Origin: an uncultured virus (IMG/VR IMGVR_UViG_3300020469_000045)
Taxonomy: Duplodnaviria; Heunggongvirae; Uroviricota; Caudoviricetes
Reading direction: 5' to 3' (one strand)
IMG/VR virus record: IMGVR_UViG_3300020469_000045
DNA: 20,000 bases
The position numbers and the translations under genes were made by a program. Positions 4,586 to 20,000 of this stretch are shown piece after piece. The notes beneath the pieces are model-generated. The model did no database searches and was not told the DNA's origin. It was given only the letters and a program-made list of their open reading frames with translations. Position 1 is the stretch's first letter. Each line of letters starts with the position of its first letter.

Positions 4586-4741
4586 ATGCCGGGTACAATG
4601 AAAAAAGATAAAAAAGGCATGGCTTATGGTCATGGTGGTGGTCTTAAAAAAAATAAACATCAAACCTATATGGGTGGTGGTGTTATGAAAAAGAAAGCAC
4701 CTATGTCTGCAATGTTCCGTGGTGGTAAAACAGGCAAATAA
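4586..4741 (+). CDS. Small basic Gly/Lys/Met-rich protein, 51 aa (not in the ORF track)
   Basis: MPGTMKKDKKGMAYGHGGGLKKNKHQTYMGGGVMKKKAPMSAMFRGGKTGK*. SD GAGGT upstream, TAATG overlap with the 4741 ORF, and it fills the gap exactly. Confidence 0.75.
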   Translation: MPGTMKKDKKGMAYGHGGGLKKNKHQTYMGGGVMKKKAPMSAMFRGGKTGK

Positions 4742-5034
4742 TGTCAGGAGCTAAGAAGGACTCTCGTTTAAAAAGAGCAGGAGTATCAGGTTATAACAAA
4801 CCAAAGCGTACTCCTAGCCACCCTAAGAAGTCTCATATTGTTGTTGCCAAAGAAGGTAGCAAAGTAAAAACCATTAGGTTTGGACAGAAAGGTGCTAAGA
4901 CTGCAGGTAAACCTAAAGCAGGAGAGTCTGCAAGAATGAAAGCAAAACGAAAATCCTTCAAAGCTCGTCATGCAAAGAATATTAAAAAAGGTAAGATGTC
5001 AGCAGCTTATTGGGCAGATAAGGTGAAGTGGTGA
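4741..5034 (+). CDS. Small highly basic protein
   Basis: 97 aa with motifs GYNKPKRTP.HP.KSH.VVAK.G..VK.IRFGQ.G and RKSFKARH....KGKMSAAYWADKVKW, recalled as recurrent in aquatic phages. Confidence 0.75.
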   Translation: MSGAKKDSRLKRAGVSGYNKPKRTPSHPKKSHIVVAKEGSKVKTIRFGQKGAKTAGKPKAGESARMKAKRKSFKARHAKNIKKGKMSAAYWADKVKW

Positions 5035-5219
5035 GTAGAGCAAAAAAATCAAAATCAAAAGTCAATGAGGCAGGAAACTATACTAAACCTACTATGCGTA
5101 AAAATTTATTCAACAGAATTAAAGCAGGTGGTAAAGGTGGTAAGCCGGGTCAATGGTCTGCACGTAAAGCTCAGATGTTAGCTAAACAATATAAAGCAAA
5201 AGGTGGTGGATATAAATGA
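5028..5219 (+). CDS. Small basic protein resembling the N-terminal half of DUF5872-like proteins
   Basis: 63 aa with a GTG start (5028 or 5031) and the motif NYTKP.MRK.LF.RIKAGGKGGKPGQWSARKAQMLAKQYKAKGGGYK. Confidence 0.7.
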   Translation: MVSRAKKSKSKVNEAGNYTKPTMRKNLFNRIKAGGKGGKPGQWSARKAQMLAKQYKAKGGGYK

Positions 5220-5476
5220 ATAAAAAACTTAGAGAAGTACCTGATAGCAATTCAGGATTAAAAAAACTTCCTTCTGATGTAAGAAATAAAATGGGATTTA
5301 TGAAAGCAGGTGGTAAGACACCTTCTCAAAAAGGAGTTAAAGCTCCAGAAGGATTTCATTTTATGAAACAAGAAGGTGGTGGATATAAATTAATGAAACA
5401 TGAAGGAAAGTTTAAATCTCATAAGGGAGCTACATTAGTAGCAAAGTTTGATATTCAAGAAAAACATAAAGCTTAA
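5216..5476 (+). CDS. Small basic protein
   Basis: 86 aa with ATGA and TAATG overlaps at the two ends; segments GLKKLP.DVRNKMGFMKAGG and KAPEGFHFMK..GGYKLMKH. Confidence 0.7.
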   Translation: MNKKLREVPDSNSGLKKLPSDVRNKMGFMKAGGKTPSQKGVKAPEGFHFMKQEGGGYKLMKHEGKFKSHKGATLVAKFDIQEKHKA

Positions 5477-5715
5477 TGCCTTTAAAAAAATCACAAAGGT
5501 CTTTAAAAAATTGGACTAAACAAAAATGGAGAACAAAGTCTGGGAAGCCTTCAGGTAAAACCGGAGAGCGATATCTTCCAGAAAAAGCAATCAAAGCTTT
5601 ATCTTCTTCAGAGTATGCAGCTACAACTAAAGCTAAAAGAAAAGGAACTAAAAAAGGCAAACAGTTTGTTAAACAACCAAAGAACATTGCAAAAAAAACA
5701 GCGAGGTACAGATGA
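5476..5715 (+). CDS. Small basic protein resembling the C-terminal half of DUF5872-like proteins
   Basis: 79 aa; KSQRSLKNWTKQKWRTKSGKPS.KTGERYLPEKAIKALS..EYAATTKAKRKG. Confidence 0.7.
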   Translation: MPLKKSQRSLKNWTKQKWRTKSGKPSGKTGERYLPEKAIKALSSSEYAATTKAKRKGTKKGKQFVKQPKNIAKKTARYR

Positions 5716-6515: not shown

Positions 6516-7292
6516 ATGGCATATGCAGCAGGTAAAAAAGCAATTGGTATCTGTGACAGATGTGGTTTCACTTATAAATTAAGAGATTTAAAATACGAAG
6601 TACAAGACCAAAAAAAAACAGGTAGTAGAATATGCCCGTCTTGTATAGACCCAGACCAACCTCAGTATAGAGTAGGAGAGGTTGATACTTCAGATAATAT
6701 AGGTTTGTTTAATCCTAGACCTGACTCAGGCGAAAAGACTTCAACAACTTATTTTGGATTTAATCCATTAAATAGCACGGGTATGGTAATAAGAGGAGGT
6801 ATAGGCTTTAGTAGAATTACAACAACTAATGCACCTAGTCCTTCTCCTAGTCCTAGTCCTAGTCCTAGTCCTAGTCCTTCACCAAGTCCGGCTAATGTAG
6901 CAGTTCAATTAACACAAAATTTATTAACAACAAGCTTAAATGCTGTTAGTACTTTAGCTGTAACAAACTATGTAGTTACAGTACAAGCTTATGGTGGAGG
7001 TAATCGTTATTATATTGACTCTGTAAGACAGCCTACATTAACTTTAGAAGAAGGTAAGACTTATAGATTTGACCAAGGTAATGCTAGTAATGGAACTCAC
7101 CCATTAAGATTTTCTACAACTTCCGATGGAAATCATGGAGGAGGAAGTGAATATACAACAGGTGTGACAACAAATGGAACACCGGGTAATGCAGGAGCAT
7201 ATACTCAAATAACTGTAGCTGTTGGAGCACCTACTCTTTATTATTACTGTACCAATCATAGTGGTATGGGAGGACAAGCAAACACACCATGA
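6516..7292 (+). CDS. Modular virion protein: CxxC-CxxC N-domain, (Pro-Ser)n linker, cupredoxin-like C-domain
   Basis: CDRC and CPSC motifs, a (PS)9P tract and a C-terminal HP...YYYCTNHSGMGG. Confidence 0.65.
   Translation: MAYAAGKKAIGICDRCGFTYKLRDLKYEVQDQKKTGSRICPSCIDPDQPQYRVGEVDTSDNIGLFNPRPDSGEKTSTTYFGFNPLNSTGMVIRGGIGFSRITTTNAPSPSPSPSPSPSPSPSPSPANVAVQLTQNLLTTSLNAVSTLAVTNYVVTVQAYGGGNRYYIDSVRQPTLTLEEGKTYRFDQGNASNGTHPLRFSTTSDGNHGGGSEYTTGVTTNGTPGNAGAYTQITVAVGAPTLYYYCTNHSGMGGQANTP
6834..6890 (+). repeat. CCTAGT hexanucleotide tandem repeat encoding (Pro-Ser)9-Pro
   Basis: Five perfect CCTAGT units at 6846-6875, flanked by further perfect or degenerate units. Confidence 0.95.
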
Positions 7293-12847: not shown

Positions 12848-13585
12848 ATGTTTGGAATAACAGCTTTTGCTCAATCGCCTTTTGCAGGTTTGGGCAGCAT
12901 AACAGGAAACGCTTCTTTTGTACCGGTAGGCTTTGAACTAACCGGCTCTATCAATTCTGTCACACCTGTCATTACAGTAAATGTACCTGTAGTTAGTGGT
13001 TTTATTTTTGCAAATGTTGGTTTAGGAACAGTCACAATAAGTGGAGATGCCAACATTCACGAGTTTATTACAGGCGTACAAGGTGTTTCAGTTTTAGGAG
13101 TAATACAAAATACAGCAGGTGCAATTGTAAATGTAACAAACACTTTTGATACTGATACTGTTACAGGAACAACAGCAGTAGGAAATGCAGTTGTATTTGG
13201 TGGCTCAGTTCAAGGAGTTTCAAGTTCAGGTAAAACTGCAGCTTTAGGAGATGAAATAATTATTGGTGACTGTAACATTACAGCAGCACAGGTTGGAGAT
13301 GTAACAGCTACAACTGCGTTAAGTTCTATAAGTTTACAAACTTTTAATGTATTACCTATGACAGGCTTAAGCAGTTCTGCTTCTTTAGGCACAGTAATAG
13401 TAATTCCTGAATGTAAAGTTTCTGTAAGCTCAGTAAGTGCAAGTGGAAGCTTAGGAGTTTTAAATATTTGGAGTTTAGTTAATGATGAACAAACACCAAA
13501 CTATACACCCGTTAATGATAATCAGTCTGCAGGATATTCTGAAGTTAATACAACTCAAAATCCTAATTGGACTGACGTAGCATAA
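12848..13585 (+). CDS. Putative tail structural protein with beta repeats
   Basis: 245 aa; MFGITAFAQSPFA N-terminus, V/T/G/S-rich repeats and a C-terminal 11-aa periodicity (VNDEQTPNYTP / VNDNQSAGYSE / VNTTQNPNWTD). Confidence 0.65.
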   Translation: MFGITAFAQSPFAGLGSITGNASFVPVGFELTGSINSVTPVITVNVPVVSGFIFANVGLGTVTISGDANIHEFITGVQGVSVLGVIQNTAGAIVNVTNTFDTDTVTGTTAVGNAVVFGGSVQGVSSSGKTAALGDEIIIGDCNITAAQVGDVTATTALSSISLQTFNVLPMTGLSSSASLGTVIVIPECKVSVSSVSASGSLGVLNIWSLVNDEQTPNYTPVNDNQSAGYSEVNTTQNPNWTDVA

Positions 13586-13605
13586 TTTTTTAAAAGAGGA
13601 ACAAT

Positions 13606-14973
13606 ATGGCAAGTACATATGATAACGATTTGCGTTTAAATGAAATGGCAACCGGTGACCAAAGTGGTACATGGGGTGACACTACAAACTTAAATTTACG
13701 TTTGATAGCAGAAGCTTTTTCATATCAAACAGACGCAACATTTACAACAGATGCAAATAAACAAGTAACCATAGCAAATGGAGCTTCTGATAAATATAGA
13801 GGTATGTATATCAAAGTAACATCAACAGTAAATGGTGGTCTTACTGCTACAAAAGATTTAGAAATTTTACCTACAACTGTATCTAAAGTTTTGTTTGTAG
13901 AAAACTCAACAACAGGAGGACAATCTATTGTAGTCAAACAAGGCTCTGGAGCTTCTGTAACTATAGCTAATGGAACTTGTAAATTATTATTTTTAGATGG
14001 AGCAGGTGCAGGTGCTGCTGTTTATGATGGCTTGAATAATCTAGCTTTGAGTGGTGACCTAACTATAGAAGGTGACGATTTAAAAATGGGTACTAATACT
14101 AGTGGTCATGTATTAGTTGCAGATGGCACAAACTATAATCCTGTTGCAATTAGTGGAGACGCTACTATTGCAGCTAATGGTGCTATAACTATTGCTAATG
14201 ACGCAGTAGAACAAGCTATGATTGCAGACGATGCAGTTGGTGCAGACCAATTAGCTTCAGACGCAGTTGTCAATGCTAGTGTAGATGCTAATGCTGCTAT
14301 TGCTTTTAGTAAAATGGCAAACTTAACTACTAGTAGAGCTTTAGTATCTGATGGTAATGGAGATGTCACACCGGCAACTACAACATCTACAGAAATAGGT
14401 TATGTAAATGGAGTCACATCAGCAATACAGACACAATTAAATACAAAACTAAGCAATGCTACTAATACATGGGTAAGCTCTTCTGATGGAATAAATAGAT
14501 TTTACTTTACTAATGCAGGTGCTACGCTTTATAAAACAGGAGCCGACCATCAATTTAGAAATGGCTCAGATGTAACAGTAGTTGAGTTTACTTCTACCGG
14601 AGTAGGAAGATTTGATAATGATGTTGTCGCTTACTACTCGTCAGATGAAAACTTAAAAGAAAATATAAAAGAATTACAAAGTCCATTGGAAAAATTAAGT
14701 CGTATTAGAGGAGTGACTTTTGATTGGAATGATAATCAAGATACTTATGAAGGTAGCGATATAGGTGTCATTGCACAAGAAGTACAAAGACAATTTCCTG
14801 AGCTTACTACTACTCGTTCTGATGGATATATGGCAGTAAAGTATGAAAAGCTTACTGCTGTATTGATAGCAGCAGTCAATGAGTTAGCTGATGAAGTTCG
14901 TGGCAATAGAGAATTGATAAAAGCAATGGAAGCTATTTTAATTGCAGATAAAATACCTGAGCAAACTAACTAA
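13606..14973 (+). CDS. Tail fibre 2 with a C-terminal intramolecular chaperone (peptidase S74) domain
   Basis: 455 aa; MASTY..DLRL..MATGDQSGTWGDTTN.NL anchor, IADDAV-type repeats, then AYYSSDENLKENI, GVIAQEVQRQFPEL and AVKYEKLTAVLIAAVNEL. Confidence 0.87.
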   Translation: MASTYDNDLRLNEMATGDQSGTWGDTTNLNLRLIAEAFSYQTDATFTTDANKQVTIANGASDKYRGMYIKVTSTVNGGLTATKDLEILPTTVSKVLFVENSTTGGQSIVVKQGSGASVTIANGTCKLLFLDGAGAGAAVYDGLNNLALSGDLTIEGDDLKMGTNTSGHVLVADGTNYNPVAISGDATIAANGAITIANDAVEQAMIADDAVGADQLASDAVVNASVDANAAIAFSKMANLTTSRALVSDGNGDVTPATTTSTEIGYVNGVTSAIQTQLNTKLSNATNTWVSSSDGINRFYFTNAGATLYKTGADHQFRNGSDVTVVEFTSTGVGRFDNDVVAYYSSDENLKENIKELQSPLEKLSRIRGVTFDWNDNQDTYEGSDIGVIAQEVQRQFPELTTTRSDGYMAVKYEKLTAVLIAAVNELADEVRGNRELIKAMEAILIADKIPEQTN

Positions 14974-15644
14974 TGCCATTACCTAGTTCCGGACAAATAA
15001 CTTTAAATGAAATGCACGTTGAGGCTAGTGGCTCTTCTGGGACACAATCAAACGTAAACTCTGCACCAATACGTTCTTTAATAAATAAATCAGCAAGTGT
15101 ACAGATGGCTTTTACAGAATGGTATGGAGCTTCTTCTGGACCTCCACCTGCAGTTGCTGCAACAGGAACAACTACACAAACACACACAATGACTTATGTT
15201 CCTTTTAATAATCCTTTTGTTAATGTAGATGGTTATGTAAATGGACCTGTGACTCTTTCTCCTTCAGATATGGGTGGATTTAACCCTGCCGGAGTTCCTT
15301 ATGGAAGCAGTACCCTTGGCTCTTTATCTCCTTCTACATATACCGGTTGGTCAGGAGCTTATTTTTCCTCATCTATTTCATATCAAAAATCAGGTTTTGG
15401 TAATGCTCGTTTAGAAGTAACATTTAGTCAAAGAAGAACTAATAGTAATTGGAATACAATGAGACATACCCAAACAACTCTTGGACAACTAACAATTCCA
15501 AGAATAAGTATGACTTATGCAACATATTGGACGCCCGGACAACCTGCTACAACAGGTCAAACAAAGTATACATATACTGCAGCTCCTTCTGTCAATACAA
15601 TTTATTTTAATAATAGTCAAACAAACTACGTACATTGGACATAG
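14973..15644 (+). CDS. Putative fibre-tip / receptor-binding protein 2
   Basis: 223 aa; MPLPSSGQITLNEMHVE N-terminus of the type that follows S74 fibres; coupled to fibre 2 by TAATG. Confidence 0.6.
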   Translation: MPLPSSGQITLNEMHVEASGSSGTQSNVNSAPIRSLINKSASVQMAFTEWYGASSGPPPAVAATGTTTQTHTMTYVPFNNPFVNVDGYVNGPVTLSPSDMGGFNPAGVPYGSSTLGSLSPSTYTGWSGAYFSSSISYQKSGFGNARLEVTFSQRRTNSNWNTMRHTQTTLGQLTIPRISMTYATYWTPGQPATTGQTKYTYTAAPSVNTIYFNNSQTNYVHWT

Positions 15645-15645
15645 C

Positions 15646-15822
15646 ATGAAAGATGAAGCTTTAAATAAAATACATTCACACGAAAGAGAATGTACTATTA
15701 GATATGAGAATTTAGAAAAAAGATTAGAGGAAGGCTCTAAAAGATTTGTACGTATTGAATTGCTTATATATGGTTTATATGCAGGTATGGCAGCAATAGA
15801 AATAACTTCGAGGTTTATATGA
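15646..15822 (+). CDS. Small coiled-coil protein with a C-terminal hydrophobic helix (possibly lysis-related), 58 aa
   Basis: MKDEALNKIHSHERECTIRYENLEKRLEEGSKRFVRIELLIYGLYAGMAAIEITSRFI. Start reassigned from 15517 to the ATG just after the upstream stop. Confidence 0.65.
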   Translation: MKDEALNKIHSHERECTIRYENLEKRLEEGSKRFVRIELLIYGLYAGMAAIEITSRFI

Positions 15823-16013
15823 AATTATTTTTAACAGAATTTACACATGATAAAAAAAGATACTCAGGACCTACTATAGTTGCTGAGAGTTTACAAATGG
15901 CAGAAGACTCTGCTGCAGACCTAGGTGTAGAAGTAGTAGGGGAACTAGACAGTTTAGTTTCAGTAGTTTTAGAGTCACTATGGGAAGCTGACGAAGACAA
16001 AGTCTTGCATTGA
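15819..16013 (+). CDS. Hypothetical acidic protein, 64 aa
   Basis: SD GAGGT, ATGA overlap, and an acidic C-terminus ending KVLH. Confidence 0.65.
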   Translation: MKLFLTEFTHDKKRYSGPTIVAESLQMAEDSAADLGVEVVGELDSLVSVVLESLWEADEDKVLH

Positions 16014-16165
16014 ATAGCGAGTTAGTTTTTGTAATAGCTTTAAATGTAATATTCTTAATAGGATTATTAGGATTAAAATTTTATTTGAAAAGAAAAGCTG
16101 AAAAAAATATGAAAGCTTATCTTAGATATTTAAGACACAAGAGAAAATATAATGTACGAATATAA
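16010..16165 (+). CDS. Small single-pass membrane protein, 51 aa, TTG start (not in the ORF track)
   Basis: (M)NSELVFVIALNVIFLIGLLGLKFYLKRKAEKNMKAYLRYLRHKRKYNVRI*. TTGA overlap with the upstream stop; a hydrophobic helix followed by a basic tail; fills the gap. Confidence 0.45.
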   Translation: MNSELVFVIALNVIFLIGLLGLKFYLKRKAEKNMKAYLRYLRHKRKYNVRI

Positions 16166-16574
16166 ATGCACAATAGATAGAGTAGTAGATGGAGATACTG
16201 TAGACGCTACTCTTGATTTAGGATTTTCTGTTTTATACAAAAGTAGAGTAAGGCTTTTTGGCATAGATACTCCTGAGTCTAGAACAAGAAATAAAGATGA
16301 AAAAGCTAGAGGTAAACTAGCTGCTAAATTTTTAAGTGATGCTATAGATAAAGCAGATACTGTAGTTATACGTACAGAACTAAGAGACTCTAGAGGAAAG
16401 TTTGGCAGAGTTTTAGGCACAATTGTTTGTGATGATATAGATATAAATAATTCTATGATAGAAAATTTTATGGCAGCAAAATATTTTGGTCAAAACAAAA
16501 CTGCAATAGAAGCTGTACATCAATCTAATAGAACTAAACTTATTGAGTTAGGTTTGTTTGAGCCTGTTGAATAA
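16152..16574 (+). CDS. Thermonuclease (staphylococcal nuclease-like, SNase)
   Basis: RVVDGDTVD, RVRLFGIDTPES and GKFGRVLG contain the SNase catalytic and Ca-binding motifs; no signal peptide. Confidence 0.92.
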   Translation: MYEYKCTIDRVVDGDTVDATLDLGFSVLYKSRVRLFGIDTPESRTRNKDEKARGKLAAKFLSDAIDKADTVVIRTELRDSRGKFGRVLGTIVCDDIDINNSMIENFMAAKYFGQNKTAIEAVHQSNRTKLIELGLFEPVE

Positions 16575-16924
16575 TGGACGATATTGTAAAGTTAATAACT
16601 GAGTTAGGATTTCCTGTTGCTGCAGCATTAGGACTAGGTGTATTTGTTTGGAAACTAATTAATAGAATTATAGACGGCATGGAATCTAAGATTGATGTTG
16701 TTGATGATAAAGTAAATGAACAATTAAAAGCTATGGAAGGTAGGCTAGATGCTAAATTAGAAGCACAACATGGAATATTGATTGCTTTGATAGACAGAGT
16801 TAGAAGTGTAGATAATGAAATTATTAGACAAGATACTTTACTTAAGACTATGTTAGGTGTACCTAATCTAGTACAGAACGATAAAATAGCAAAGGCAGAT
16901 AGAGATGACCAAAGAAAAGATTAA
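16574..16924 (+). CDS. Inner-membrane protein with an N-terminal TM helix and coiled coil (holin-like or csg-cassette-associated)
   Basis: 116 aa; ITELGFPVAAALGLGVFVWKLI TM segment, then a heptad-rich region; overlaps csgF by 20 nt. Confidence 0.65.
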   Translation: MDDIVKLITELGFPVAAALGLGVFVWKLINRIIDGMESKIDVVDDKVNEQLKAMEGRLDAKLEAQHGILIALIDRVRSVDNEIIRQDTLLKTMLGVPNLVQNDKIAKADRDDQRKD

Positions 16925-17447
16925 AAGAAAAAGAGGCAGACCTTCTAATGCAGAACTAGTTGCTAGAAAGAAAGCAAGAGATAAAGACGTAGCTTTAATT
17001 ATTTGTATGTATGTTGGTTTATTTATAGTCATAGCATTTTGTGTAAATCTAGCATTAGCTGATGAAATGAATTTTAAATTTAAGTCACCAAGCTTTTCAG
17101 GTATCAATACATCTCAACATTATTTAACAATAGAAAATCAAGAACATACTAGATATAAAACATTGCAAGAAGAAGTAGAAGCTTTAGTAGAACAGGCAGA
17201 AAGAGATGAACAGAATACTACAACTGCAAGATTTATAAGAAACTTTGAAACAAGAGTTTATGCAAAATTATCTCAACAATTAGTTGATAAGTTGTTTGGA
17301 GAAACTGCACAAGATAACGGGACAATAGAACTTGAGGGGAATACTATTGACTATAAGGTTGATGAAACCAATATAATTTTGACAGTTACTAATGAAGCTA
17401 ACAAACAAACAGTTATTACTTTTCCTCTTAATAGTTTTACTTTCTAG
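16905..17447 (+). CDS. csgF: Curli assembly protein CsgF homolog
   Basis: Hydrophobic signal ending ALA|DE. The mature N-terminus EMNFKFKSPSFSG aligns with E. coli CsgF TMTFQFRNPNFGG, followed by a helix (RFIRNFETRVYAKLSQQLVDKLFG) and beta C-domain (IILTVTNE..KQTVI.FP). Directly upstream of csgG. Confidence 0.85.
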   Translation: MTKEKIKRKRGRPSNAELVARKKARDKDVALIICMYVGLFIVIAFCVNLALADEMNFKFKSPSFSGINTSQHYLTIENQEHTRYKTLQEEVEALVEQAERDEQNTTTARFIRNFETRVYAKLSQQLVDKLFGETAQDNGTIELEGNTIDYKVDETNIILTVTNEANKQTVITFPLNSFTF

Positions 17448-18195
17448 CTGTACTGTCTTTTATGATGATGCTTTACAAAATCAAAAGATTTCAAAGTATG
17501 CTGAAAGAGTTGGAGTTATTAATAAAGAAATAGAGACTATTTTACCGGCAGATAAAAAACCTATAGTAGCTATATACCCAACTTCTTTTACAGACCAAAC
17601 AGGACAAAGAAGAAGTAATAGTAATTTTGCAACGTTTAGCACAGCAGTCACACAAGCACCATATGTGCTTTTGATAAAGACTTTAAAAGCTGTATCTAAC
17701 GGAGAGTTTTTTGAAGTTGTAGAAAGAATAGGTTTAGATAATCTAACTAAAGAAAGACAACTAATAAGAAATACCAGAGAAACATTTGATGACCCACAAA
17801 AATTAAAACCATTAGTTTTTGCAGGTCTTATAATGGAAGGAGCTATAGTCGGCTATGAAACCAATACAAGAAGTGGAGGTCGTGGAGCTAGACTTTTAGG
17901 TATAGGGTTATCAAAACAATATAGACAAGATACTGTCACACTGTCTTTGAGAACTGTATCTGTTTTAACCGGTAGAGTTTTAATAGAAGTTACAGTATCA
18001 AAAACTATATTAAGTGTTGGAACTAATCAAGACGCTTTTAGATTTATAGAAAATAAAACCGAATTGATTGAAATAGAAAATGGTGATGTAGAAAATGAAA
18101 GCGTAACGATAGCTGTACAAGCAGCAATTGAAGAAGCTATTTTGTCTACAATCAAAAAAGGAATTGAAAAACAATATTGGAGCTATAAAGAATGA
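17392..18195 (+). CDS. csgG: Curli secretion channel CsgG homolog (outer-membrane lipoprotein)
   Basis: Lipobox LSSC (Cys20). FTDQTGQ...FSTAVTQ, VVERIGLDNLTKERQLIR, MEGAIVGYETNTRSGGRGARLLGIG.SKQYRQDTVTLSLRTVSVLTG.VL..V.VSKTILS are collinear with E. coli CsgG. Confidence 0.95.
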   Translation: MKLTNKQLLLFLLIVLLSSCTVFYDDALQNQKISKYAERVGVINKEIETILPADKKPIVAIYPTSFTDQTGQRRSNSNFATFSTAVTQAPYVLLIKTLKAVSNGEFFEVVERIGLDNLTKERQLIRNTRETFDDPQKLKPLVFAGLIMEGAIVGYETNTRSGGRGARLLGIGLSKQYRQDTVTLSLRTVSVLTGRVLIEVTVSKTILSVGTNQDAFRFIENKTELIEIENGDVENESVTIAVQAAIEEAILSTIKKGIEKQYWSYKE

Positions 18196-18899
18196 AAAAG
18201 TATTTACCAGTAATTATTTTTTTAAGTATAAATATTTTTGCTACAGACAATGAAATATCTATAGACCAAGCAGGAGCTACGGCAAATATAGATATTGAGC
18301 AGCTTGGGTCTGGAAACTTAATCGGTGGAGCTACTGCTGTATCAGGTACTATGACACCATTAGATTTAGATGGTGCAACAATGACACTTGATGTAAACCA
18401 ACTAGGTAATTCAAATATATTTAAAGGCGATATATATGCTGATAGTTATACAGGCTTTTTTGAATTTACCGGAGACTCTAATACATTTGCCATACAGACA
18501 GACCCTAATAATACTTATGGTGCAGACAGTTCTAATATAAATGTACAAGTGTCTGGGTCATCAAATGCTTTTACTTTTAATCAGGCGACTAATGCACAAG
18601 CTTCTACATTAGATTTAGATTGGACAATAAATGGCTCTAATAATTCAATTACATCTGCAATTGACCAAGACTTAGCTACAAACTATATGAACATAGATGG
18701 GTCTGATAATACTGTGACATTTGATGGTGACGGGTATCAAGGAGCATATTTTCATTTGACTCATACAGGAGGGTCAAGAACAATAAATGTTACACAACAA
18801 AGCACACTTGATAATGATTGGCTTAAGATTACTTCTAATGGCTCTAATGGTACTTTCTGTGTCAATCAAAACGACCAAGGCACTAGCACAAGCTGTTGA
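18192..18899 (+). CDS. Secreted curlin-like repeat (beta-solenoid) protein
   Basis: Sec signal peptide (MKKYLPVIIFLSINIFA) and repeated strand-G-x-x-N arcs: NIDIEQLGSGN, TLDVNQLGNSN, GFFEFTGDSN, NINVQVSGSSN, DWTINGSNN, YMNIDGSDN. N/Q/G/S/T/D-rich; immediately after csgG. Confidence 0.72.
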   Translation: MKKYLPVIIFLSINIFATDNEISIDQAGATANIDIEQLGSGNLIGGATAVSGTMTPLDLDGATMTLDVNQLGNSNIFKGDIYADSYTGFFEFTGDSNTFAIQTDPNNTYGADSSNINVQVSGSSNAFTFNQATNAQASTLDLDWTINGSNNSITSAIDQDLATNYMNIDGSDNTVTFDGDGYQGAYFHLTHTGGSRTINVTQQSTLDNDWLKITSNGSNGTFCVNQNDQGTSTSC

Positions 18900-19932
18900 T
18901 ATAGGAACTGTAGAACAAGTATCAGGATATGCCAGAATAGAACGTGACAAAAATTATGATGTAATTACAGACTTTGGCATACAGTCTTACGACAAAGCAC
19001 AAACAGAAGCAGGTCGTATGGGTATTAGATTTATAGACGATACAAGTATTCGGATTACTGAACATTCAATGGTAGTCATAGATGAATTTGTATTTGATGC
19101 AAACCCAGATAATTCTAGATTAGCTTTAAATTTTGTAAAAGGTACAGCAAGATTTACTTCAAGTCTTACTAATAAAATATCTAAAAAAAATATAAAGCTT
19201 ACAACAAATAGTGCAGTAGTAGGAATTAGAGGAACAGACTTTACAATAACAGTAGAGCCAGATACAGGAAAAAGTTTGTTTATATTATTACCTGACAAAG
19301 ATGGCAACCCATCAGGCGAAATATCTGTGACAACAGCAATGGGTACAGTAATACTTAATAAACCTTATCAGGCTACAACTACTAGAGTTTATGAAGCTCC
19401 ACCAAGTAATCCGGTTATTTTAGATTTGTCTTTGGATTTTATAAACAATATGTTATTGATTGCTCCACCCGAAGAAGATAAGGATATAGAAGAAAATACT
19501 GAAAAAAAACAAGAGAATAATTTATTAGATTTTGATGAACTAGATGTAGATTATTTAGCTGATGATTCGCTAGATAAAGACGAACTAGAATTTACAGAAT
19601 TAGACTATGATGCTTTGAATGTAAATTTTTTAGAAGATTTGTTAGATATAATTACTGAACTTGATGTTTTAGATAATGAGAAAGAATTAACTCAAACAAT
19701 ATCAGCAGTAAATATAGAAGGCACTACTATAGGGCAAGACCAAAAAACACAAATAACTACAATAGTTTCTGGACAAGAAGTAAAATTAACAAGGTCAGTC
19801 GCTTCATCTACATCAATACAAATAGATAGTGGAGAAAGCTACTTAGTAGTTTTAGAACAAGATGGTGTCACTAATCAAGTTAAAGTAAATGGTGGTGGCT
19901 CTTCTGTAATTGTAATAAGGCAAAGTCAATGA
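18787..19932 (+). CDS. Exported FecR-domain protein with an acidic C-terminal region (start may be 18787, 18814 or 18838)
   Basis: Signal peptide ending ALAQA; FecR-type beta domain (IGTVEQVSG, GRMGIRFIDDTSIRITEHS.VVIDEFVFD, NFVKGTARFTS, AVVGIRGTDF); long D/E/L-rich tract; C-terminal GGSSVIVIRQ strand. Confidence 0.8.
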   Translation: MLHNKAHLIMIGLRLLLMALMVLSVSIKTTKALAQAVDIGTVEQVSGYARIERDKNYDVITDFGIQSYDKAQTEAGRMGIRFIDDTSIRITEHSMVVIDEFVFDANPDNSRLALNFVKGTARFTSSLTNKISKKNIKLTTNSAVVGIRGTDFTITVEPDTGKSLFILLPDKDGNPSGEISVTTAMGTVILNKPYQATTTRVYEAPPSNPVILDLSLDFINNMLLIAPPEEDKDIEENTEKKQENNLLDFDELDVDYLADDSLDKDELEFTELDYDALNVNFLEDLLDIITELDVLDNEKELTQTISAVNIEGTTIGQDQKTQITTIVSGQEVKLTRSVASSTSIQIDSGESYLVVLEQDGVTNQVKVNGGGSSVIVIRQSQ

Positions 19933-20000
19933 GTAAAATTTTATTAGGTGTAATAGCAGTTTTGATTTCTATATGTGGATTTTTGTATTGGCAAAATTCT
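19929..20000 (+). CDS. 3'-truncated ORF with an N-terminal TM helix (possible i-spanin-like)
   Basis: MSKILLGVIAVLISICGFLYWQNS...; ATGA overlap with the FecR gene; only 24 codons are visible. Confidence 0.5.
   Translation, partial: MSKILLGVIAVLISICGFLYWQNS

Follow-up and report, generated by a model that had tools for sequence, protein, structure and literature searches.

A five-gene curli cassette in a marine phage

The window analysed here, a 20,000-nt stretch of an uncultured Caudoviricetes virus (IMG/VR record IMGVR_UViG_3300020469_000045), carries a curli-like (type VIII secretion system, T8SS) cassette of five genes at positions 16574-19932, all on the + strand and each overlapping the next. 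They encode a transmembrane (TM)/coiled-coil protein (16574-16924; 116 aa; PHROG 18771), CsgF (16905-17447; 180 aa; PF10614, PHROG 35372), the outer-membrane lipoprotein pore CsgG (17392-18195; 267 aa; PF03783), a secreted, acidic protein with the predicted fold of a degenerate curlin-like beta-solenoid (18192-18899; 235 aa) and an exported FecR-domain protein of 372 aa from its conserved start (18814-19932; PF04773, and PHROG 37870 along the whole length). The order csgF, csgG and curlin, the gene labelled 'HK' in the literature directly upstream of csgF, and fecR directly after the curlin gene are the hallmarks of a module already published for marine phages. The cassette is a real, intact member of this module, in its cyclase-free five-gene form and on a backbone lacking PolA. 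The new hint is that the FecR partner ends in a curlin-like tail, so that this protein, too, may pass into the channel.

The junction between the virion genes and the cassette is real. The GC content is flat across the cassette (0.31-0.34), and a complete 58,166-bp IMG/VR genome with terminal repeats (hereafter G002), 97-98% identical to the window over most of its length, is collinear with positions 13945-20000 at 98.1%. Additionally, a public 7,192-nt contig covers positions 13000-16909 with zero mismatches, bridging the virion genes and the cassette start. On these three grounds a chimeric join to bacterial DNA was ruled out, and the description of five overlapping genes contiguous with virion genes in the first-pass annotation stands. 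The two DNA runs examined for reads of the window appear to be one data set. Two RNA-labelled runs gave only 5 and 4 short, low-depth contigs, which are not evidence of transcription, and a promoter and terminator scan yielded no more sites than expected by chance (23 vs 22.7 in shuffled sequences).

The coding sequences for the CsgG and FecR signal peptides lie within the 3' ends of csgF (17392-17447) and the curlin gene (18814-18899), respectively. The spacing from the csgF stop to the lipobox was the same in 39/43 loci, and the curlin/fecR overlap measured 86-92 nt in 37/45. In the annotation of phage HTVC008M, overlaps are absent at both joints.

CsgF, CsgG and the curlin-like protein

The Pfam scan took in 27 open reading frames (ORFs) of the window, with family cut-offs in bits. 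CsgF (PF10614, 53.8 bits; cut-off 25.8), CsgG (PF03783, 152.7 bits; cut-off 20.8) and FecR (PF04773, 36.8 bits; cut-off 24) scored above threshold, in agreement with their first identification. The CsgG profile matched the E. coli CsgG chains in the PDB with an E-value of about 1e-65, and the CsgF profile matched E. coli CsgF weakly (E 0.005). The window CsgG has the intact lipobox ascribed to it (LSSC), with Cys20 nearly invariant in 13 aligned homologues. CsgF carries a signal peptide and an extended basic n-region; the cleavage site was placed near Ala52 by eye. An RGRP stretch in this unusually long n-region (16905-16990) occurs in 5/43 homologues, and an AT-hook role for it was dropped on account of that low count. 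An unannotated 1,499-bp 'Salmonella phage' record (OR851715.1) also matched CsgG at 39% and may be host DNA.

The lack of csgE, another feature pointed out earlier, was confirmed: none of the four records searched, three of them complete (including G002 and a second genome, G003), matched CsgE, and the E. coli control was positive. CsgC and CsgD were absent among the 27 window ORFs in the general Pfam scan, no genome-wide search having been made for them. The absence of all three is unremarkable, because alphaproteobacterial curli operons normally lack csgC, csgD and csgE (Dueholm et al. 2012, PMC3521004).

The fourth protein did not match the Pfam curlin repeat (Curlin_rpt, PF07012) at E<=0.01. 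Its orthologue in the Methylophilales phage Melnitz scored above the cut-off of this family (26 bits vs 20.7), and the records of both HTVC008M and Melnitz annotate a curlin gene after csgG. The AlphaFold model is a beta-solenoid with a predicted local distance difference test score (pLDDT) of 83.5. Its best PDB match was Pontibacter CsgA (8c50; Z 17.2, root-mean-square deviation (rmsd) 8.8, 196 residues aligned), tied within 1 Z unit with SufB/D-type solenoids (Z 16.4-16.5), and its best viral matches in BFVD were phage proteins named 'Curlin associated' (template-modelling score 0.74-0.76). A Foldseek search of the PDB returned nothing at E<=0.001 for this model or for that of FecR. The window protein contains three strict half-motifs and zero full canonical arches, and at least one full arch was found in only 5/52 curlin rows. 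Moreover, it has a C-terminal Cys223/Cys235 pair; a terminal Cys pair is conserved and could cap the solenoid. The fourth gene thus models as a degenerate curlin-like beta-solenoid, which is consistent with the proposal that the phage encodes a candidate substrate of its own.

The small gene upstream of csgF

The first protein of the cassette consists of a single membrane helix and a coiled coil. A profile built from 54 such TM proteins retrieved 1,044 representatives, the best 150 of which were 75-209 aa long, and the window protein was aligned with 149 of the best representatives (n=150). None of the 150 matched a kinase Pfam family, and the alignment contained no invariant column, a conserved His included. 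The window protein aligned at 27-37% with the HTVC008M and Melnitz genes upstream of csgF, and the 'HK' of 023Pt_env09 belongs to the same family by eye, no alignment tool having been used. Judging from these sequences, the gene labelled 'HK' by Wittmers et al. (2022, PMC9599517) encodes a small protein with a membrane segment and a coiled coil, not a histidine kinase. An ESM Atlas search with the TM protein matched solely unnamed viral clusters.

A lysis function would fit some features of this gene: 26/150 relatives matched a PHROG annotated 'holin', weakly (best E 1e-7), and in one locus (L234) the TM gene lies among lysis genes, with csg genes absent from the 13.5-kb fragment. L234 was the sole locus listed in which csgF was visibly missing beside the TM gene. 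The TM gene belongs with the curli module rather than with the lysis genes, because csgF adjoins it in 75/78 scorable loci by a script rule, and because in a distant group of large phages a TM pair sits beside a cyclase gene in 61/63 loci and beside a lysozyme gene in 0/63.

These large phages (L281-L360; contigs up to 383 kb) have the module in a different layout, with the TM pair and the cyclase on opposite strands and facing each other, csgG and fecR at a greater distance and, in many cases, a long second curlin of up to about 760 aa. All five large-phage records tested carried csgG and fecR elsewhere. In two other loci (L011:3548-4693 and L012:2708-3793), a gene with an ART-PolyVal ADP-ribosyltransferase domain occupies the usual place of the TM gene directly upstream of csgF; both loci lacked a TM-family match.

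FecR domain, linker and curlin-like tail

The FecR protein more likely starts at 18814 than at 18787, a Met being present there in 40/52 aligned rows. It consists of a signal peptide, a FecR domain, an acidic linker and a beta-rich curlin-like tail. The domain model resembled PupR (6ovm; Z 13.6, rmsd 2.3, 120 residues aligned). PF04773 was the only family found by the Pfam scan, with no match to the anti-sigma N-terminal domain or to FecR_C; the protein begins with a segment resembling a signal peptide and ends with the linker and tail. In the linker (19525-19644), a Leu occurs every fifth residue from L238 to L273 in eight repeats, and each position is hydrophobic in 94-100% of the 52 rows.

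The last 30 residues fit the consensus for curlins given by Sleutel et al. (2023, PMC10192328). The pattern scored was an arch of the form psi-x-psi-x-Q-x-G-x-x-N-x-psi-x-psi (psi, hydrophobic) followed by a terminal psi-x-psi-x-Q strand. The full arch (19837-19923 in the window) was present at the tail in 43/52 rows, elsewhere in the protein in 0/52, and in a fraction of 0.0006 of shuffled sequences. The terminal strand alone was found in 70/70 and 72/81 phage FecR proteins vs 1/77 bacterial FecR-domain ORFs. It also ended 5/5 and 23/24 second curlins, and it occurred in 11/301 and 18/529 background ORFs. The C-terminal part of FecR gave no usable match in the ESM Atlas.

Phage backbone and neighbouring lysis genes

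The window corresponds to the late gene region of a podovirus-like marine phage and includes genes for the capsid (PF25209/PF10124), adaptors, two fibres with intramolecular chaperones, oxygenases and a nuclease. The capsid protein is 70% identical to those of MinM2/Pag-Yong1 and 61-64% identical to those of HTVC023P, HTVC027P and psg01; recorded hosts of the capsid relatives comprise cyanobacteria, Gammaproteobacteria, Pelagibacter and Roseobacter. The gene order is HTVC027P-like, with a related capsid, GroES and virion order and a genome near 58 kb, in line with the earlier statement that the backbone is not T4-like. PolA (PF00476) was absent from the complete genomes G002 and G003, whereas HTVC027P and a control genome (G006) were positive. 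Meanwhile, G002 encodes a fused primase-helicase that is common to three of the five records searched (G003, G418 and G420). The virion is thus HTVC023P-like and the replication module not, which places G002 and G003 outside the PolA-based HTVC023P-type set.

These genomes belong to a group of phages with complete genomes of 58-59 kb that have an HTVC023P-like virion or this curli cassette, lack PolA and use the fused primase-helicase. G002 (L203:8696-19827) also carries Sak and RusA, and the best capsid and primase relatives of the group include the 65,014-bp phages MinM2, Pag-Yong1 and JY27.

An i-spanin-like gene, of which only the start lies in the window (19929-20000, + strand), follows the cassette and belongs to the neighbouring lysis cassette, outside the module. 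Its full copy in G002 matched an Rz-like spanin (PHROG 739, E 2e-15), bearing out the spanin-like flanking ORF noticed before, and in G002 the curli cassette is followed by two spanins and then an endolysin (lysozyme). Across relatives, the lysis genes downstream of the module seem to come in two alternating sets, a spanin pair with lysozyme or a 160-aa membrane protein (PHROG 1544) with lysozyme. Upstream, three tiny ORFs at 15646-16165 (58, 64 and 51 aa) had no match in Pfam or PHROG; those of 58 and 51 aa contain a hydrophobic segment and could be holins.

Elsewhere in the window, five or six short, very Lys/Gly-rich ORFs lie between the capsid and adaptor genes (4586-5715), and a similar ORF follows fecR in locus L012. 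In a virion protein encoded at 6516-7292, a (PS)n linker precedes a domain common to tail-fibre PHROGs.

Distribution, cyclase absence and selection

At least 592 confirmed FecR relatives were found in IMG/VR, indicating that the curli module is common among ocean phages. The survey covered the best 80 of these, a sample that leans to close kin, and comprised 110 viral loci, 108 of them with FecR, in 47 clusters at 90% identity. The genes csgF, csgG and curlin lay upstream of fecR in 40/40 scorable clusters and the TM gene in 38/40. A CHASE2 cyclase gene followed fecR in 35/47 clusters, and the catalytic motifs were intact in 52/58 full-length cyclases.

Neither the class III cyclase domain (PF00211) nor CHASE2 (PF05226) was found in the complete genomes G002 and G003, and the control G006 has both. 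In a tree of 52 curlin and FecR sequences, the cyclase label changed 5 times (shuffle mean 13.9), and several losses or regains are likely. The pooled ratio of non-synonymous to synonymous substitution (dN/dS) over 7 disjoint cyclase-less pairs was 0.034 for the TM protein, 0.063 for CsgF, 0.070 for CsgG, 0.047 for the curlin-like protein, and 0.038, 0.028 and 0.062 for the FecR domain, linker and tail, respectively. Over 6-10 cyclase-bearing pairs it was 0.06-0.16, and 0.19 for the cyclase itself; dS differs between the two groups (0.84-1.23 vs 0.38-0.74), which are not strictly comparable. No sign of relaxed selection was seen in the cyclase-less pairs for any gene or FecR region. Every gene of the cassette is thus under purifying selection without a cyclase, so the core can apparently do without one from the phage.

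In GTDB, full-length FecR matches accounted for 3/80 loci and close CsgG matches for 6, all on contigs of assembled or binned genomes. A phage-type cassette was present on 8/9 of these contigs, two of which (L195 and L200) also carry lysis genes. The cassette-bearing contigs (L037, L038, L039, L195-L197, L199 and L200) sit in bacterial metagenome-assembled genomes or bins of unrelated labels and are probably phage contigs binned with bacteria, not host evidence. A bacterial operon with the whole module was not found in the genomes searched. In one alphaproteobacterial sample, csgF was present in 8/401 genomes, and neither FecR nor a cyclase lay near csgF in the eight alphaproteobacterial loci examined (seven from the sample plus L198).

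A proposed surface structure and its alternatives

In E. coli, CsgG and CsgF form a channel in the outer membrane that both exports curlins and anchors them. The module most likely builds, in an infected Gram-negative cell, a surface structure anchored across the outer membrane; to this extent the idea of a trans-envelope device put forward in the first-pass annotation survives. CsgG would make the pore and CsgF line it, in an assembly like that of E. coli. The curlin-like protein would leave via Sec and then CsgG and, according to its model, could dock, as a rod-like beta-solenoid or a short fibre, on CsgF. FecR, with its curlin motif, may be a second client of the pore: its tail would enter the channel and stack on the solenoid, and the folded FecR domain would remain periplasmic as a tether and a plug replacing the missing CsgE. 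In most relatives, where the genes are linked, the FecR domain might relay the state of the structure to the CHASE2 adenylate cyclase. In the cyclase-free phage, the cyclase is lacking yet the core is kept, and therefore the structure would have a use of its own, most likely a change of the cell surface (adhesion or blocking of competing phages).

We rate as about even the chance that the curlin forms a rod anchored at the cell surface, with FecR and its curlin-like tail as a tether or plug in the CsgG pore. A more specific version is tentative and, on balance, may well be wrong: the phage 'FecR' would be a FecR-curlin chimera and a client of CsgG, with the tail joining the surface solenoid, the FecR domain in the periplasm and the Leu linker resident in the pore, so that one polypeptide spans the outer membrane. 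The module would then be a tether and sensor rather than an amyloid factory, and the cyclase-free phages would have its minimal core.

Several observations weigh against this picture. The tail pattern was devised after inspection of the sequences, and the rows scored are related. Among 37 distant FecR proteins, the full arch was found in none, the terminal strand in 27 and a looser Leu-linker pattern in only 16, and, as scored, the terminal strand is missing from most first curlins (present in 7/63 and 18/81). A FecR-curlin profile-profile comparison lands on the tail and is not significant (probability 2.6% and 0.5%), and the AlphaFold model has pLDDT <50 for FecR residues 186-340 and most of the tail. 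Additionally, the absence of the cyclase is genome-wide for the G002/G003 clade only, the other 'cyclase-less' labels referring to the local neighbourhood. Clumping was not seen in Melnitz infections (Buchholz et al. 2022, PMC9004378), which also counts against the bulk curli considered below. A predicted complex of curlin residues 18-235 with FecR residues 288-372 gave a median of 0.27 (runs 0.27, 0.41 and 0.14; mark 0.32) and is evidence neither way.

Classical bulk curli would be one alternative, with the curlin-like protein polymerizing into long amyloid fibres that aggregate ('sibling capture') or shield hosts and FecR acting as a mere regulator. This model was put forward in PMC9599517 and by Zaragoza-Solas et al. 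(2020, PMC7029224), who state that CsgA/B, CsgF and CsgG are enough to make curli, and the best PDB match of the solenoid is indeed a CsgA. However, we consider it unlikely: the repeats are degenerate and escape the Curlin_rpt profile, there is a single curlin gene whose conserved Cys pair could cap the solenoid, and imperfect terminal motifs block solenoid polymerization (PMC10192328).

A role in sensing or uptake appears less probable than bulk curli. In this case, the FecR domain would signal to an inner-membrane protein of the host, CHASE2 or another, or the pore, being ungated, would import a nutrient, as suggested in PMC9599517. The FecR fold is that of cell-surface-signalling proteins, and the domain is as constrained without a phage cyclase as with one (dN/dS 0.038 vs 0.084). 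However, a CHASE2 gene lay near only 5/77 bacterial FecR-domain loci and csgG near 0/77, and import alone leaves CsgF, the curlin and the curlin-like tail unexplained.

CsgG is an outer-membrane lipoprotein, and pinholins act in the inner membrane. An accessory role in lysis, in which CsgG/CsgF permeabilize the outer membrane or time lysis with the small TM protein as a holin, is the weakest of the roles first proposed and has little likelihood: lysis genes lie directly downstream here and within 3.5 kb in 26/47 clusters, and a pinholin idea has been published (PMC9004378), but the phage already covers outer-membrane disruption with its own spanin pair next to an endolysin, 11 clusters lack a nearby lysis gene (2 mixed, 8 unscorable), the large-phage TM pair keeps away from lysozyme, HTVC027P and 023Pt_psg01 lack csgG, and the membrane is the wrong one for a pinholin.

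Comparison with known systems

The first-pass annotation had presented the non-T4 backbone, the substrate, the missing csgC/D/E and the attached FecR as unusual. This novelty does not hold, since all four had been reported for HTVC023P-type podoviruses in PMC9599517, which lists cyclase-free marine podoviruses carrying these five genes. Specifically, three of eight podovirus rows examined in its Data Set S1E (023Pt_env03, env04 and env09) are cyclase-free like the window phage and of similar genome size (58 kb), and env09 has a single short 'HK'. The available text of that paper treats FecR as an iron-type regulator and makes no mention of a curlin-like tail. A literature search joining FecR, curlin and CsgG found nothing and is a weak negative, as it also missed PMC9599517; no experimental test of a phage curli module was found, judged by titles and the starts of abstracts.

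The copy described here is therefore not a discovery. Its value is that of the smallest natural version to express, with five genes, no cyclase and evidence of selection. A specific, testable prediction follows from the FecR tail, namely that its exposure at the surface depends on CsgG. The TM gene should no longer be labelled 'histidine kinase'. If the tether model is true, it would represent an unusual use of the curli pore, coupling the cell surface to the periplasm.

HTVC008M (gp011-019) and Melnitz (gp97-104) carry TM genes, csgF, csgG, curlin and FecR in the same order, and their CsgG proteins are 44-47% identical to that of the window. They differ in their T4-like myovirus backbone and in having two TM genes, an additional curlin and a CHASE2 cyclase, and none of the lysozyme and spanin models used matched in the stretch listed around their cassettes. 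Enterobacterial curli (CsgBAC/CsgDEFG) have the CsgG lipoprotein pore and CsgF in common with the window cassette, along with a secreted client that in the phage is a predicted beta-solenoid, whereas the window cassette has no CsgE, one degenerate curlin and extra TM and FecR genes. FecR/PupR signalling shares the periplasmic FecR-type domain, but the window FecR has neither of the flanking domains typical of that system as far as Pfam matches go. Finally, signalling from the outer membrane to a CHASE2 cyclase has a precedent in S. meliloti (NsrA with CyaD1/D2/K; NsrA/CyaK, PMC13001267), FecR/CHASE2-cyclase clusters are known from Campylobacterota (PMC9239204), and a FecR-domain gene is among cyclic AMP (cAMP) targets (PMC5498481). 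Most phage relatives share this linkage to a cyclase; the window phage differs in having none, and the outer-membrane component of the phage module is the CsgG pore.

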